A stretch of DNA of 64,000 nt from Leptonemataceae bacterium. GTDB lineage: Bacteria > Spirochaetota > Leptospiria > Leptospirales > Leptonemataceae. The position numbers were made by a program. Every line of letters starts with the position of its first letter. Positions within the stretch are counted from its first letter, which is position 1. Of this stretch, positions 42,401 through 48,400 are shown in pieces. The stretch spans positions 4,512,001 through 4,576,000 of the forward strand of contig OZ245742.1 in assembly GCA_965227295.1 (NCBI GenBank), given 5' to 3'.

Positions 42401-45400
42401 ACGACAGGAAGTCTTGCTCATAGATCGCTTCAAGGATACGCGTCGCGCATGTTTGTACCAGTTTGTCTTCGAGGGCCGGCAATCCAAGCGGACGTTGTTT
42501 TCCGTCCGCTTTCGGGATAAAGACCCTGCGAATCAGTTTTGTTCGGTATCGTTTCTGTTTTAAGCGTTCCACCAGATCCCCGACATTTTCCGTAAGGTTC
42601 GCTTCGTAGTCGCGAAACGTTTCACGGTCCACGCCCGGAGCCGCCCGGCGATTCATTCCTGCGAACGAATCTTCGAGATTCATCTGGTTGAGCATCCCAT
42701 ACAGATTACGAAACAGATGTTTCTTACTCCTCCTCGCTTTATTTGCTATTGCCCGTAGTGAGGTTTGCATCAGTTGTTCCGATCCTGCCGTCCGGCTGAT
42801 GTTGACTCTGCGAGCTGCGTACTTTCGTCAGCCCCTTCCCCGATCATCGCGCATCGCACGCGAAGACCGAACCCGTCGAAACTCCATTCGAGTTTCATTC
42901 GATTCTGTGGACGGCTCTCCCGCCCTCTGAGTACTATGGGCTGATCCGACTCCCCGTTGATCATCATTCTTCCTTGTTCATTCGGTCAGAATTACCTTCG
43001 CTATCGTCGAAGGAACCAACGGGGTCTCCCGGGTTCCACGATGTTTCTCTGCATACATGCCGCGCTCAAGCGACCCCGACAGACCTCCAGAATCTCGCTA
43101 AAACGATTCCTTTGTGCTGGTTTCCATCTGACCAATGATGTCACCGTCTGCATCTATGGCATTTTACGAGGCTCAACAGCTTCCGGGAGTGTGGACTCCC
43201 CTACGGCCTGCATGCTTCCCTGTGTACGCTTCGTGTGGCGGTTACCCGCTTCCACGCAACACTCGGTAGAAGTTGTTCGCTAAACTTTACTTCATATGGA
43301 CTTTCACCTTATCAGAAACATCGGGCTTTGCCCGGCGCACTGGCCACACGCCCCACGCATTTGTGGCCACAAATTCAGCCGTGGGCAGCAAGTTTCTTGC
43401 CGGCCATCCAGAACCGAAACATCAGCCGGATATGCGCGGCGATCTCCGCTTCCACGGACAGCTTTTTCGATCTGCGTTTCGCTGGCTCCGCAGAAAAATT
43501 GATCCATGACCTACTTCGACCACTGCATAACCAACGCCGGCTCGGAAGGGATGAATTCACGAATCCAGGCGATCAAAACTCGCGCCCGGGGCTTCCGAAA
43601 CTTCGCCCATTACCGGGCCTCGATCCTCTCTCATTGCGGGGATTTAGAGCTTTATCCGTGAAAATTCCTGAAGATGGACGCACATGGCGGCATATTACAA
43701 GTTTAAACTCAAGGAAAGTTAATTTTTTGCTGACAAAATCCTGGAGACATGCTAACATCACGCAATGTTACTCTAGTAAATGTCGATGCACGAGATCGCA
43801 AATCTCTTCAATGGAGACTATATGGGGACGGTGAGACTCGAACTCACACTAGACACGTTCTGAGCGTGCTGCCTCTACCGCGAATGTAAGCAGTTGCTCC
43901 CGGGTGGTCGCAACTGCGGCGGTTCAGACTGCTTCGCAGTCTGGGCTACGGATGCGTTTCGAGCGAGCGGGAATCGAACCCGCACTCTGCCGATTTTAAG
44001 TCGACTGCCTCTGCCTGATTGGGCTATCGCTCGCTGCGGAACAGGGAGGAATCGAACCTCCGCGTCTGTTACGACGACCACGGTTTAGCGGACCGCTGCC
44101 TTACCTCTCGGCCACTGTTCCAATTTCCGGAGGGAGAAGGAATCGAACCTTCGCGCCTGTTAAGACGACCGCCGGCTTCCAACCGGATACCTTACCACTC
44201 GGTCATCCCTCCACGCTGCGGATAGAGTAGGAATCGAACCCACGCGACGAACCGCCGACCTCCGTTTTCGAAACGGGTCCCTTACCACTCGGGCATCTAT
44301 CCAGTATGCGCTGCCGAGGATTTGAACCTCTCGTCACCCGACCTCCTCGTTTAACGAGTAAACTGTACCTTGCTGCGCAAGCCTTGACTTACTACCGCCT
44401 TTCAGTTGCTGGCGTTTACAGACCGGCAGGAGGAAAGCAGCGCGTTTAAAAAGAAAAAGCCCCTCGCGGGTTTACCGGGAGGGGCTTCTCGAAGACAGAG
44501 AACTGTCCGCGCGTACTACATCGCCGCCTCCCGCATGCCGCCGGAGCTGAGAAGATACAGCGATGATAGTAACATACCGTTCATGATACGGTACATGAGA
44601 CGAGGCAAAGCGAAGCTTTCGTTCCAAAAAATATATTTTCGTTAAGAATTTCTCGAAAACCGTCGTCTCTTAACTTCAGGTAAACGTGATGCACTTCCCA
44701 CAGAGCAACTGGCCCCAACAGAATCCCGGCATCTGCCTGGAGGTGGTCGTGTAGTGCTCTGAGCAACAGCGCGTTTGCGCGAGAACCCCCTCCGGCGGAA
44801 GCTTGAGGGGGTTTTTTATTATCCGGCGTGTAGCTCAGGGTGTAGAGCACCGGTATCGGGAACCGGGGGTCGTGGGTTCAAGTCCCACCACGCCGACATA
44901 GAGGGATGAGTCGAGCGGTCCAGGCTGTCGGACTCCAAATCCGATGTTCACAGGTTTTTGTGCATGGATGCACTTATGCCGCGGAGGACAGGAAGTCCGG
45001 GAGCGGCCGAATCCTGAAAGAGGAAGATGCTACGCATCTTTCATCTTACTGACGCGCTGCGCTTGTCCCTCTGCCAGAATACCGGAGTAGCCTAATGGTA
45101 AGGCGACGCACTGTTAATGCGTTCTATGCAGGTTCGAGTCCTGCCTCCGGTGCAACTCATTCCGGGGTAGTTCAACGGGTAGAACACCGGCCTTTGAAGT
45201 CGGGGGCGCAAATAGACTTTTGCCTTATGGCAAAAGTCGGCGGTTCGGAGTTGTGCGGCAACGCACAACTCCGGGTCCTCACCATCTCCCGGAGCATTGA
45301 GTTCTATGAAAAAAATATTTAAATCTTTATGAAGTTGTTGACGTCGAATACCGAGTAAGTAATCAGGAAACGGAATGTCGCAGAAGCGCCTACAGACAAC

Positions 45401-48400
45401 GGAACGAGACCTCGCGAAGGCCGGCATGATTCATGCGGGTTGTGAGCGTGATGTGTTTCAGGGAGTCATGCGCTCGTCTTAGATTCAGTGTAACCTGCTG
45501 GATGCGAAAGGCGAGCCCGGATCAACGGCTCGCCTTTTTTCGTTTATGGGCATTTTGCTTATTTTTCAAGTGTTATGAGGGAGATATGGAAGACAGAGAA
45601 CGATGTTACCGACCGCCGCAAGCCAGAGTAAACCCGACATGGTGCGCGAGAGGCCAGCGGGCGGTCTGCAAAGCCGTTTAACGTGGGTTTGTGTGCAGGG
45701 ATGCACTTATGCCGCGAAGGACAGGATGTCCGGGAGCGGCCGAATCCCACCCATGTCTCATAGTACAATGAACCGCGCAGGACGTACATATGTATCAGCC
45801 GGAGCGATGCCGCGAGAGCGGGAACGTGGATCAAGCTACGTTTCAACTCAAATCGCCGGCGTCGTCTAACGGCAAGGACGCTGCACTTTCACTGCGGTAA
45901 TCGGGGTTCGATTCCCCGCGTCGGCAAAGGTATTTTCATAAGAAATTTAACAATGGATTCGTCTGAGTATTCTATCATGAGCTTAACAGTAACAGCAACG
46001 GTTGTAAGGACCGCCCGATTTATCGGGATGCGGATCGATGCGGGCCATAAGGACGGCCGGATCGCCGGAGGAGTTCTGCGCATGCGTTGCTGAGAAGAAT
46101 CTACAGACGCATTCATGAAGAACCCTCCCCGGCCGACGCCCTGGAGGGTTTTTTCGTTTATACGCATCGCTGGTGTCAGTGGCAAGCATAGCTGTGTGCC
46201 ATGCAGCAGGGAAGAGTTCGAGTCTCTTGCGGTGCACATTACAGAAAACAGGAGGTACGCCATGAAGAGCGAAGATGACAAGAAGACGTTTAGAGAATAG
46301 CGGGTCCGGAGCTCGGGGGTAGAGCATCCGACTTTTAATCGGATGGCGATCGGTTGAGTGCTTCGCACTCTCATCTTACTCCCGCCTTTCAGTTGGGGGT
46401 TCGAATCCCACCGGACCCACATTTCAAGTAGCGAGGTTAATATGAACGAAAGTGACTTTAAGAATAATAAGACGGAACGTCGGGGAGCAGGTGTGGTCAT
46501 TGCATCCGGTTGAAGCCCGGAGGAATTCGGTTCGATCCCGAGCCCGACGAATACGCATCAGTGATGTAACGGTCAACATGTCTGTCTTCCAAACAGATCA
46601 TCAGGGTTTTTGGCCATGGATGGCCTTATGCCGCGGAGGACAGGAGGTCCGAGAGCGGCCGATTCCCTGCTGATGCACACGCCCGGTTAGCTCCAATGGT
46701 TAGAGCGGCGGTTTTGTGAACCGCTGGTTGCAGGTTCGAATCCGTGCACCGGGCAAAACATTGCGGTGTAGCATAGTGGCGATGCAGCGGGCTCATAACC
46801 CGTCCTACGGAGGTTCAATTCCTTCCGCCGCAACATACGGGCTTAGGACGCAATATAAACGCCTGTCTTACAAACAGGAGATCGCTGGTTTTTGTGCATG
46901 GATGCACTTATGCCGCGGAGGCCAGGAGGGCCGAGAGCGGCCGAATCCGGCAGCCCGTACATGGGGCCGTAGTTTAACGGGAGAATCTTTGTTTTGCAAA
47001 CAAGGGACGTCGGTTCGATTCCGACCGGTTCCACAAATTGGACTTTAGCTCAGAGGGACAGAGCGCCCGTTTCCGAAGCGGTAGGCCGCAGGTTTTTGGC
47101 CACGGATGGCCTTATGCCGCGAAGGACAGGAGGTCCGAGAGCGGCCGAGTCCTGCAAGTCCAACACAGGGCCCTGGCCAAATGGATCAAGGCATCAGATT
47201 ACGAATCTGAAGATTGCGGGTTCGAGTCCCGCGGGCTCTACATGCCGCGTTAGTTTAATGGTAGAACTCCTGATTGTCTCTCAGGGGGCGAGGGTTCGAT
47301 TCCCTCACGTGGTGCATACGAAGCGTAGTTTAACGGTTGAGAACGACGGTCTGATATGCCGTTGGTTAAAGACGAAGATTCAGCGTTATGCGTGAACGCA
47401 TAACGCTGGGTTCGATTCCAGCCGCTTCGAAGCATCCCGGTAATCGGGATTTTCATAAGGGGTTGGTGTATGTGGCTAACATCCGGGATTGTGTCTCCCG
47501 GGCAGTGGGTTCGAATCCCGCACCCCTGAAAGAGAGAAGCGGGCGATCTCATGCATCGATATTTACTAGAGTAACATTGCATGATGTTAGCATGTCGCCA
47601 GGTTTTTGTCAGCAAAAAATTAACTTTCCTTGAGTTTAAACTTGTAATATGCCGCCATGTATTTAGCCTTCCCCCGGAGGAAACTATCACATGGAAACAA
47701 TTCAGAAAATCATCGTCAGTCACGAAGGCATGGAAGCGCTCAAACTGTGCGAGTCCATCCGCGTGGAACACGAAGAATACCCTCTGCTCGTCATAGAGTT
47801 TCTGGGACAGGGGCCCACCGCTCGCCCCGCCGTGGGCGTTTCGCAGTTCATCAAGCAAGCGGGTAAACATCAGCCGGATATGCGCGGCAATCTCCCCTTC
47901 CACAGACAACTTTTTCGATCTACGTTTCGCTGGCTCCGCAGAAATAAATGCGAGAAACCGGCGGACGTCCGCGAGGCCTGCGTCCGCGAGGCGCTGAAGA
48001 TCATTGAAAAACACGGCGTGGAAAATCTGAGCCTGCGCCAGGTCGCCCGGCGCCTGAAGCTTTCTCATCAGGCCCCGTACAAACACTTCGCGAGCAAAGA
48101 TCATCTGCTCGCGGAAATCATTGAGCGCGGTTTTGTCACGTTCGCGGAGTATCTCGAACGCGACGCAAAATCGAAGCAGGCCAATCGCAACCTGCGCAGC
48201 CTCGGCAAGGCTTACATCCGCTTCGCCCTGGACTATCCGCTCTACTACCGGCTCATGTTCTCGTCGCCGCATCCGCCGGCGAAAGAACATCCCGGCATGG
48301 CAGCCCGCAGCAAGGCCACCTTCGAGATCTTACGCGATCGCGTCCGCGACATGCAGTCCATGACCGGAGCGCGGCGCGACGTGGACGCGGAGGCCCTGTT

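Follow-up and report, generated by a model that had tools for sequence, protein, structure and literature searches.

Interrupted tRNA genes in a duplicated array

Why should five different tRNA genes of one bacterium be interrupted at the same nucleotide of the T-loop by the same 51-nt sequence, and was this sequence acquired as DNA, spliced as RNA or put to some other use? The question is raised by a 64,000-nt stretch of a Leptonemataceae genome (the window, to which coordinates refer unless marked as genome positions). The genome is denoted G000 and its two congeners G001 and G002. The window contains two tRNA arrays in opposite orientation, and to define the inserts we aligned positions 44781-47580 of array 2 (+ strand) with the reverse complement of positions 35481-37900, which cover array 1. 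The arrays and the features that concern the 51-nt element are as follows.

43959..47530, Leu and Ser genes on the - strand, Pro to His on the + strand: tRNA array 2, which bears all of the inserts
35528..38814, inverted: tRNA array 1, an uninterrupted copy with 26 tRNA genes, used as reference
44957..45007, +: 51-nt two-hairpin element in the tRNA-Trp(CCA) T-loop, 55/56 (gap in array 1; model R1, 77.1 bits)
45690..45740, +: 51-nt element in the tRNA-Cys(GCA) T-loop (gap in array 1; R1, 74.3 bits)
46609..46659, +: 51-nt element in the tRNA-Gly(UCC) T-loop (gap in array 1; R1, 82.1 bits)
46891..46941, +: 51-nt element in the tRNA-Val(UAC) T-loop (gap in array 1; R1, 79.4 bits)
47095..47145, +: 51-nt element in the tRNA-Arg(CCG) T-loop (gap in array 1; R1, 82.3 bits)
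44900..45076, +: interrupted tRNA-Trp, exons and two inserts (76/78 identical to array 1 outside the inserts)
45636..45759, +: interrupted tRNA-Cys (72/72 identical to array 1, plus 1 extra base)
46555..46678, +: interrupted tRNA-Gly(UCC) (71/73 identical to array 1)
46837..46960, +: interrupted tRNA-Val, D-arm region also rearranged (alignment to array 1)
47039..47164, +: interrupted tRNA-Arg(CCG) (70/75 identical to array 1)

In the alignment each of five non-homologous tRNA genes shows a gap of exactly 51 nt, in all cases between T55 and C56 (GGTT^CGA, with a right flank of CGA(A/T/G)TCC) and filled in the sense orientation. Since the insert begins with TTT and ends with GGC, and the flanks read ..GTT and CGA.., none of the five boundaries can be shifted, and there is therefore no target duplication. 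On both points the preliminary description of this locus was correct.

The region contains perfect inverted repeats and a perfect 13-bp tandem repeat that can mislead assemblers, and an artefact of assembly or strain mixing would account for the inserts of array 2 without any biology. We give this practically no credence, as independent short-read contigs from two public runs match array 2 and its inserts with 0 differences. Run X1 gave contigs of 1959 nt and 742 nt, the shorter of which covers the Arg-CCG insert, and run X2 gave contigs of 215 nt across the Cys insert and 372 nt across the Lys and Gly inserts; array-1-type contigs occur alongside them.

Outside both arrays there are 45 tRNA genes that cover all 20 amino acids and include Trp, Cys, Gly-UCC, Val-UAC and Arg-CCG. 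The array 2 genes that have been hit are therefore redundant, and the five that carry the element dispensable, so the earlier caveat that the inserts may mark decay of a redundant copy still stands. Array 1 is likewise dispensable and has the same T-loops, yet in the alignment it is without any insert, which counts against the T-loop as a preferred target of a mobile repeat. Judged from structure, a gene whose T-loop is split in this way would probably be unable to yield a working tRNA. The exons are nevertheless well kept, with identities to array 1 of 97.4% (Trp), 98.6% (Cys), 97.3% (Lys), 97.3% (Gly-UCC) and 93.3% (Arg-CCG); scores for Val, Gln and Ile are lower in local alignment owing to further small rearrangements. 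As the interrupted genes are no more diverged (93-99% identity, against 90-99% for most uninterrupted ones), there is no sign of decay after insertion, a result that retained function would fit too.

Array 2 carries further lesions, which comprise a deletion in Arg-UCU, the rearrangement of the Val D-arm and additional inserts.

45017..45064, +: second tRNA-Trp insert, 48 nt, between the T-stem and the 3' acceptor strand (7-bp hairpin followed by TCATCTTACT)
46348..46396, +: tRNA-Lys insert in the variable region (6-bp hairpin, TCATCTTACT and CCCGCCTTTCAGTTG; same family as the second Trp insert)
about 45207..45281, +: two perfect-hairpin inserts in tRNA-Gln, in the variable region and T-arm (alignment to array 1)
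47367..47408, +: hairpin insert in the variable region of tRNA-Ile(GAU) (alignment to array 1; Rfam tRNA match 47319-47430)
47434..47450, +: tRNA-Arg(UCU) remnant, only two acceptor-stem halves left (alignment to array 1)

These inserts in Lys, Trp, Ile and Gln had been reported before as unique in the genome. They are present, but not every one of them is unique, as the second Trp insert and the Lys insert share the hairpin and TCATCTTACT, and the tail of the Lys insert, ACTCCCGCCTTTCAGTTG, recurs at window positions 44391-44408 and at genome position 1907557. The corresponding genes of G001, said to be uninterrupted, proved to be so for Trp, Gly-UCC, Val, Lys, Ile and Gln (ARAGORN); the same program found no Cys or Arg-CCG gene in the stretch of G001 examined. 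In G002, hairpins do replace T-loops as had been stated, in Pro-CGG and Arg-ACG, and there are in addition hairpin inserts of about 60 nt in two Ser genes.

The element has a conserved two-hairpin structure and is found far beyond the array

The element consists of a first hairpin (5 bp, loop UGGA), a linker UUAUG and a second hairpin, which has a 5-bp outer stem, an internal loop GRA / GRGA, a 4-bp inner stem and a loop AGGAN, so that both hairpin loops display A(N)GGA. The first loop reads AUGGAU or ACGGAU, and the region of the second reads CAGGANG in G000 and CAUGGAUG in many relatives. In the G000 copies pairing holds in 98.4% of cells, and double changes are seen at 5 of the 14 pairs; for 113 distinct family members the proportion that pairs is 96.3%, and double-change cells number 303, compared with 88 in shuffles. 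The structure is thus conserved, with compensatory changes. A basal stem common to both hairpins is absent, the flanks of 122 members forming duplexes of -4.58 kcal/mol compared with -4.47 kcal/mol after permutation; only the five tRNA copies have such a stem, and there it is supplied by the T-stem.

The covariance model R1 detected 12 full copies in G000, five in tRNA genes and seven elsewhere, and the element cannot be regarded, as was first supposed, as a peculiarity of the tRNA array. All seven non-tRNA copies sit at two fixed sites of one abundant GC-rich repeat family (GCTTT^CC, 4 copies; CGGT^(A/C)CC, 3 copies), of which 74 copies have the first site unfilled. Neither congener has a match to R1 (0 copies in 2/2), and 13 of 41 other genomes of the bacterial family have 1-31 copies, making 14/42 with G000. 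The core of the element is present in more than 121 public records, mostly from Gammaproteobacteria and Spirochaetota, and in many genomes the element occupies intergenic DNA. Over the insertions as a whole the left flanks are GGTT, CTTT, CGGT, CATT and CACT, which have only the final T in common; as the non-tRNA flanks share little beyond this T, a preference for a particular target rests mainly on the tRNA cases.

A 30-nt core is conserved across phyla. This exceeds what is usual for a selfish repeat, and it speaks against a mobile repeat and for a cellular role.

The inserts were probably acquired as DNA and more than once

Pairwise, the five tRNA copies differ at 2-9 of 51 positions. Those in Gly and Arg are 2 nt from non-tRNA copies and those in Trp, Cys and Val are 7-8 nt from them; by these differences the tRNA inserts appear to descend from two or more source lineages. 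In a related strain (runs X3 and X4, one sample; 90-95% alike) a sixth tRNA, tRNA-Arg(UCU), bears the element at the identical T-loop position, a placement that follows from the joints 45015->47445 and 47442->44953 together with a loose end that runs into the body of Arg-UCU. In that strain Trp, Cys, Gly-UCC, Val, Lys and Ile are uninterrupted, and Arg-CCG carries a different insert. The differences between the strains point to recent insertions into a preferred target and not to one old event.

A potential explanation that would dispense with target preference is plain decay of array 2, in which a single insertion was followed by spread to neighbouring T-loops through gene conversion or replication slippage. 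The many other lesions of array 2 would be in keeping with this, and the T-arm flanks GGTT and CGAATCC, common to most tRNA genes, could seed short-patch conversion. We consider it improbable. The shared flanks are only 4 and 5-7 nt long, the T-stems differ, the five copies form two groups of which one is 2 nt away from non-tRNA copies of the genome, and in the related strain another tRNA carries the element while Trp, Cys, Gly-UCC and Val are free of it; moreover, that five insertions should share a single nucleotide position out of about 2,800 cannot be chance.

Could the 51 nt instead be cut from precursor tRNAs and the halves joined into working tRNAs, as a bacterial counterpart of archaeal intron transposition? 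In Thermoproteales, near-identical intervening sequences occupy the same non-canonical position in different tRNA genes (excerpt of PMC4033280, citing Fujishima 2010), and the present pattern of one sequence at one position resembles that described in this excerpt. The genome also has a gene for the ligase RtcB, and the exons are well kept. RtcB is, on the other hand, common in bacteria (10/14 control genomes), and the tRNA splicing endonuclease (tRNA_int_endo, PF01974) gave no match in G000 (0/1) but did so in four archaeal controls. By inspection there is no bulge-helix-bulge, the ends UUUGUG and GAGCGGC forming no 4-bp helix with each other; Rfam gave no intron family match; and the same element lies at seven non-tRNA places and in intergenic DNA of many genomes. 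Splicing at the RNA level is in our view very unlikely. Group I and group II introns were rejected as candidates, since 51 nt is far too small for either, the T-loop is the site in place of the usual anticodon loop and no intron family was matched.

We rather favour the view, which we hold to be probable, that the element is a small non-autonomous mobile repeat with CsrA-type loop hairpins that was inserted as DNA, with a preference for T-loops, into five genes of a redundant array. The element would have entered the DNA of these array 2 genes always in the sense orientation and between T55 and C56, at GGTT^CGA without target duplication, the T-loop being a preferred target and not a chance one. 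The sequences suggest movement at the DNA level, presumably through an enzyme acting in trans that recognises hairpins or single strands.

No transposase can be linked to the element, an observation that counts against a mobile repeat. The Y1 transposase domain (Y1_Tnp, PF01797), already noted as missing from this genome, gave no match in G000 (0/1) or in five element-rich relatives (0/5), and control genomes were matched.

GGA loops and a possible cellular use

If the interrupted genes are transcribed, each would give a tRNA-shaped RNA whose T-stem bears two hairpins with A(N)GGA loops. The predicted minimum free energy fold of the Gly-UCC chimera is a cloverleaf that keeps the acceptor, anticodon and T-stems and exposes the two hairpins, which emerge from the T-stem. 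Loops of this kind are what CsrA binds, and binding here may be expected from the sequence. The SELEX consensus for CsrA is RUACARGGAUGU with GGA in a hairpin loop (excerpt of PMC4347634), and the inner hairpin ACAGGAUGU fits it as a candidate site. The genome has csrA at 1294010-1294165 and a csrA-fliW pair, and the five inserts together provide 10 GGA-loop hairpins; these are features of Csr/Rsm sponges.

The inserts might accordingly have been kept as useful, array 2 now encoding tRNA-scaffolded decoys by which CsrA, or a different protein that binds GGA loops, would be titrated, as it is by sponges of the CsrB/RsmZ type. The tRNA body would be stable and processable by RNase P and RNase Z, and the T-stem would act as basal stem for the two hairpins. 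Several observations agree with such exaptation. Hairpins of the form CA(N)GGA(N)G are densest in array 2 (11 in 2.5 kb, 10 of them from inserts) compared with at most 4 elsewhere on either strand, a comparison that is partly circular because the motif was defined from the element. The orientation is sense in 5/5 inserts, the hairpins are intact with compensatory changes, the exons decay no faster than those of uninterrupted genes, the Gly-UCC fold is predicted to expose both hairpins, and the csrA-fliW pair is present. In other lineages the 51-nt-type element occurs in tandem arrays (L058 x3, L105, L152, L154), as expected of sponge RNAs. A Csr/Rsm sponge role has been proposed for AYGGAY-loop repeats in the excerpted text of bioRxiv 10.64898/2026.09.22.753630. 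Against exaptation, the second Trp insert and the Val D-arm rearrangement are unlike a maintained scaffold, and Rfam gave no match to a Csr/Rsm family in window 43800-47700. Both congeners have csrA without the element, which is therefore not needed; in the family as a whole csrA is found in 39/42 genomes and the element in 14/42. RNA sponges are not known from FliW-partnered CsrA systems. A scan for GacA boxes in 150-nt flanks from other lineages gave 1 weak match in 121. We regard exaptation as an unlikely alternative, if one worth stating.

A wider proposal, which we offer as speculation and think doubtful, is that a 'dual GGA-loop' module of two hairpins, widespread but as yet unnamed, passes from genome to genome and in this lineage has T-loops as its landing pads, whereby spare tRNA genes would become stable, tRNA-processed scaffolds with putative high-affinity CsrA sites. 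Were this true, nature would have its own version of the 'tRNA scaffold' trick used in the laboratory, and a FliW-type (spirochaete-like) system would for the first time be seen to have an RNA antagonist of CsrA.

Comparison with known systems

REP/BIME sequences with their RAYT proteins and the hairpin MITEs of IS200/IS605 are short and hairpin-ended, lack terminal inverted repeats and target duplication, insert in an orientation-specific manner and nest inside other intergenic repeats. The element resembles them in its end hairpins, in having neither terminal inverted repeats nor target duplication, in orientation-specific insertion and in nesting within other intergenic repeats. It differs in that its core is kept across phyla and no Y1/HUH transposase was found in G000 or five element-rich relatives. 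Of the fixed 4-5-nt word 3' of which such elements insert, the left flanks, with only their last T in common, give no clear sign.

The sponges CsrB, CsrC and RsmX-Z likewise have many GGA motifs in hairpin loops, which in the element are putative binding sites; unlike them, the element has no Rfam match and is inserted in tRNA genes and repeats, with no dedicated sRNA gene. With the tRNA introns of Thermoproteales it has in common a near-identical sequence at one non-canonical position in different tRNAs, but the host is a bacterium, bulge-helix-bulge and EndA are lacking and the element also lies outside tRNA genes.

tRNA array units are defined by at least 20 tRNA genes at a density of at least 2 per kb (excerpt of Tran et al. 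2016, PMC4758250), and array 1 is one by this definition. As in the units described there, a complete housekeeping set exists alongside and the array lies on a mobile island; the excerpt mentions pseudogenes but, unlike what is seen in array 2, no T-loop hairpin inserts.

The RF01731 model of TwoAYGGAY gave no match in window 43800-47700 at E<=1 or in 10 loci from other lineages at E<=10. In the excerpt of bioRxiv 10.64898/2026.09.22.753630, TwoAYGGAY is multi-copy and mobile-element-like with a strongly genome-dependent copy number, its loops are proposed as Csr/Rsm sites, and a basal stem is common to both hairpins. Compared with that account, the element lacks the common basal stem, and its second hairpin is extended by a further outer stem and contains an internal loop that is conserved (GCG-RAG ... 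CGAGAGC). Like TwoAYGGAY, it is multi-copy, varies strongly in copy number from genome to genome, resembles a mobile element in its behaviour and has two adjacent hairpins with (A)YGGA(Y) loops, AYGGAY among them.

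Five tRNA genes carry the same insert at one T-loop position

The two tRNA arrays of the window are inverted copies of each other, and array 1, which is uninterrupted, served as the reference for array 2. The arrays and the group II intron between them are located as follows.

35528-38814, array 1
43959-47530, array 2, the duplicate that carries inserts
41357-43304 (- strand), complete group II intron
43063-43304 (- strand), D1-D4 of the intron
41457-42770 (- strand), reverse transcriptase (RT)/maturase ORF of the intron
41357-41431 (- strand), D5-D6 of the intron

Alignment of array 2 with array 1 left five gaps, each of exactly 51 nt, at 44957, 45690, 46609, 46891 and 47095 (+ strand), in the genes for tRNA-Trp, Cys, Gly-UCC, Val and Arg-CCG. 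All five inserts are flanked by GGTT on the left and CGA(A/T/G)TCC on the right, which places them at the T55/C56 junction of the T-loop; their boundaries admit no shift, the target is not duplicated, and every copy is oriented with the tRNA sense strand. Short-read contigs of two public runs (X1 and X2) matched array 2, inserts included, with 0 differences, and some of these contigs bridged the Cys, Lys and Gly inserts. We conclude that the structure of array 2 is real, and the alignment and the contigs together confirm the preliminary description of a 51-nt insert at T-loop position 55/56 of five different tRNA genes. Skip joints seen at the insert sites in X2 were considered as excision products and rejected, as the accompanying base differences show that they are array 1 sequence placed on array 2.

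The exons of the interrupted genes are as well preserved as those of the uninterrupted genes, a pattern that would fit either recent insertion or retained function. In the predicted fold of the Gly-UCC chimera the acceptor, anticodon and T-stems are intact and two hairpins project from the T-stem.

The arrays are accessory and lie on an island

ARAGORN found 86 tRNA genes in this genome. Since the 45 that lie outside the arrays cover all 20 amino acids and include each of the five anticodons of the interrupted genes, we consider arrays 1 and 2 to be accessory. Both match what PMC4758250 defines as tRNA array units. The island that carries both begins at a tRNA-Ser gene adjoining a recombinase-like ORF. 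A UG27 reverse-transcriptase ncRNA array was considered for the RT between the arrays; this reading was dropped because the RT belongs to the complete group II intron and because UG27 units, as the preprint describes them (section 9), are hairpins of about 150 nt and not tRNAs.

Several further features of the window were noted. Array 1 is flanked by 1516-bp inverted repeats that are 100% identical (33999-35514 and 38838-40353), each arm containing a DUF6908 ORF, and a second perfect inverted pair, of 623 bp, lies further left (27490-28112 and 33013-33635). A diverged 118-bp inverted pair (43682-43799 and 47543-47660) encloses array 2. These repeats suggest that the segment is invertible or was recently duplicated. 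At 40317-41328 about 78 units of 13 bp form a perfect tandem repeat, immediately next to one arm of a perfect inverted repeat and to the group II intron's 3' end. In both arrays a 12-codon ORF (MKSEDDKKTFRE; 46262-46300 in array 2) with a strong AGGAGG site has been kept and ends 1 nt before tRNA-Lys, and a similar short ORF precedes tRNA-Phe; by their sequence, both look like leader peptides ahead of tRNA genes. Bacterial tRNA-Leu normally has a long variable arm. The array genes called as tRNA-Leu (38588-38814 and 43959-44033) are only 73-75 nt long and do not have this arm, the housekeeping Leu genes being 83-85 nt.

The insert is a copy of a dispersed, structured repeat

The preliminary description had treated the 51-nt element as a peculiarity of tRNA genes, and this did not hold: BLAST and R1, a covariance model built on the element (51 positions, 14 pairs), found 12 full copies in the 5.94-Mb genome, plus two weak partial matches, and seven of the 12 lie outside tRNAs. 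These seven are found in intergenic mosaics of GC-rich hairpins, at two fixed sites within one abundant repeat, GCTTT^CC (4 copies) and CGGT^(A/C)CC (3 copies); 74 unfilled copies of the GCTTT^CC site were counted. They represent either independent insertions or spread together with the host repeat. The host repeat itself is a GC-rich composite (..GACC-GSGCTTTCCRGGGCTCCGC-hairpin..) that occurs at least 74 times genome-wide, for example at 3600-3660 of locus L003 and at genome positions 288387 and 301816.

The element forms two hairpins with GGA loops. Hairpin 1 (CAUGGAUG) has 5 bp and the loop UGGA, or AUGGAU including the closing pair, and is followed by a linker ending in RUG. Hairpin 2 has a 5-bp outer stem, an internal loop of GRA (5') and GRGA (3'), a 4-bp inner stem and the loop AGGAN, the inner hairpin being GGACAGGAUGUCC, which contains ACAGGAUGU. 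Across the 12 copies 98.4% of pair cells are standard, and five of the 14 pairs have changed on both sides.

R1 found no copies in the two other genomes of the genus. Among the family's 41 other genomes, 13 have 1-31 copies. A 30-nt core pattern occurred in at least 121 stretches of a species-representative genome collection, most of them labelled Gammaproteobacteria (Woeseiaceae, Acidiferrobacterales, Lysobacterales, Chromatiales and others) or Spirochaetota/Leptospirales MAGs and a few Firmicutes; some of these loci repeat in tandem with a period of 51 nt. We aligned 118 matches, 113 of them distinct, drawn from 100 of those 121 loci. In an alignment fitted to the model, with some columns fixed by the pattern and the variable stem columns free, 96.3% of cells pair in the 113 distinct members (slid controls, 19-37%), with 303 double-change cells against 88 in shuffles. 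The element belongs to a conserved, structured repeat family that extends from Gammaproteobacteria to Spirochaetota and is not captured by Rfam.

Among the 121 pattern loci listed, ARAGORN placed four tRNA genes near the core, in three loci. One locus (L132) has the element antisense within a degenerate tRNA-Gln copy, at a position other than 55|56, and none of the tRNA-associated pattern loci of other lineages showed a 55|56 insertion. Scans for the right-hand T-loop junction, in which near-identical records were possibly omitted, gave one match in metagenomes, a chance match with neither element nor tRNA, and none in viruses. In several gammaproteobacterial records (L052, L088, L089 and L075) the distance from a tRNA- or tmRNA-like 3' end to the element behind it is about 100 nt, and in three of them part of that 3' end recurs right after the element, like an island attachment site.

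The T-loop was occupied repeatedly

The tRNA-borne copies do not form a single clone. Those in Gly and Arg are separated from the non-tRNA copies by 2 nt, those in Trp, Cys and Val by 7-8 nt, and the latter three differ among themselves by 4-7 nt. In contigs of a related strain (90-95% alike; public runs X3 and X4 of one sample) the Trp, Cys, Lys, Gly-UCC, Val and Ile genes are uninterrupted, and Arg-CCG has another insert, a hairpin followed by TCATC (loose end at 47086). In the same contigs the body of tRNA-Arg(UCU) is joined to GGTT, the element, CGAATCCT, CGC and CGGGAT; judged from these joints, the element occupies 55|56 of a sixth tRNA in this strain, in a copy 1 base from the Trp copy.

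Six T-loops, in six different tRNAs over two strains, are thus occupied at one nucleotide position throughout, which cannot be chance. Gene conversion, by which an insert would have been copied from one gene to another, could hardly explain six inserts at the same position because the shared flanks amount to only 4 nt on one side and 5-7 nt on the other. The left flanks of the element copies have only the final T in common. No Y1/HUH transposase was found in this genome, as the preliminary description had stated, or in five element-rich relatives. With the replication origin near 1.16 Mb and the terminus near 4.08 Mb, six of the seven non-tRNA copies have their sense strand as the leading-strand sequence and the five tRNA copies the reverse; no uniform strand rule emerges, and local inversion may have occurred.

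An alternative that was weighed is that the insert is removed from the RNA in the manner of an intron. A gene for RtcB is present, but RtcB is common. A tRNA splicing endonuclease was not found in the genome, the insert junctions form no bulge-helix-bulge by inspection, a self-splicing intron would have to be far larger than 51 nt, and the element also occurs outside tRNAs. We consider such removal unlikely. The best reading, and in our judgement a probable one, is that a minimal mobile repeat enters at the DNA level, markedly prefers the T-loop of tRNA genes, and is tolerated in array 2 because this array is redundant. The repeated landing between T55 and C56 points to an insertion mechanism that reads the T-arm.

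Arrays of the genus collect several kinds of insert

Array 2 has further lesions: Trp contains a second insert, of 48 nt; Gln, Lys and Ile contain hairpin inserts; the D-arm of Val is rearranged; and tRNA-Arg(UCU) has been reduced to two acceptor halves. The second Trp insert and the Lys insert, each a hairpin plus TCATCTTACT, form a second small insert family, and the tail of the Lys insert was found again beside two tRNA-Ser genes, with diverged forms in other family genomes. A motif ACT(N)CCGCCTTTCAGTTG, most often with a short hairpin ahead of it, was seen beside tRNA-Ser genes, within the Lys insert and next to a GGA element in another genus (window 44391-44408; genome position 1907557; locus L033 1342-1382 and 1697-1730); it had no Rfam match.

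The altered genes in the single array of the congener G002 lie in locus L170.

3588-3678 (- strand), 5871-5960 (+ strand), 2610-2908 (- strand) and 6030-6155 (+ strand), Pro-CGG/Arg-ACG segment, Ser inserts and Ile T-arm

The hairpins described earlier in place of T-loops in G002 were found in Pro-CGG and Arg-ACG, as one common 26-nt segment (CCGTG-hairpin-CTGGWT). Two Ser genes there have variable-arm hairpin inserts of about 60 nt with a common tail, and the Ile T-arm is rebuilt. We conclude that the accessory arrays of the genus collect several kinds of insert, mostly in the T-arm and variable region.

The element loops resemble CsrA sites

SELEX gave RUACARGGAUGU as the CsrA consensus, the GGA being within a hairpin loop (PMC4347634), and in sequence the element loops look like such sites. 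The genome has a single csrA gene directly downstream of fliW (1294010-1294567, - strand), the protein-antagonist arrangement; csrA itself is a 79-aa ORF at 1294010-1294165. The csrA profile was found in 39 of 42 family genomes; its presence does not discriminate, as the three without it are 58-81% complete. A genome scan for hairpins with 4 bp or more whose loop is spanned by CA(N)GGA(N)G gave 11 in a 2.5-kb stretch of array 2, the inserts accounting for 10, and no more than four in any other 2.5-kb stretch of either strand. This ranking is partly circular because the motif was taken from the element itself. No GacA box was recognised: a scan of the 150-nt flanks of the 121 pattern loci listed gave one weak match. 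A less likely possibility is that the cell retains the tRNA-shaped chimeras because they act as CsrA decoys. If chimeric RNAs are made, mobile repeats, accessory tRNA arrays and global post-transcriptional control would be linked; if they are not, the inserts nevertheless show cleanly, as an experiment of nature, how a minimal mobile element chooses its target.

Comparison with known elements and interruptions

The element resembles TwoAYGGAY in its two-GGA-hairpin design; TwoAYGGAY elements of Pseudomonadota are reported in a 2026 preprint to be multi-copy, to show mobile-element-like behaviour and to be possible Csr/Rsm sponges (bioRxiv 10.64898/2026.09.22.753630). By the tests run it has a TwoAYGGAY-like design but is not a member, because the Rfam TwoAYGGAY model did not match the element sequences and the family members have no common basal stem. 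Outside subscription journals we found no report of such an arrangement, in searches that covered T-loop insertions in bacterial tRNA arrays, miniature inverted repeats in tRNA genes and tRNA-like CsrA sponges. The kinds of element involved appear to be known ones (REP/MITE-like repeats and TwoAYGGAY-like GGA-hairpin elements), and the T-loop target appears to be unreported. According to PMC4033280, the only known interruptions of bacterial tRNA genes are group I introns, which lie in the anticodon loop, whereas the element lies at 55|56 of the T-loop and is a different kind of interruption.
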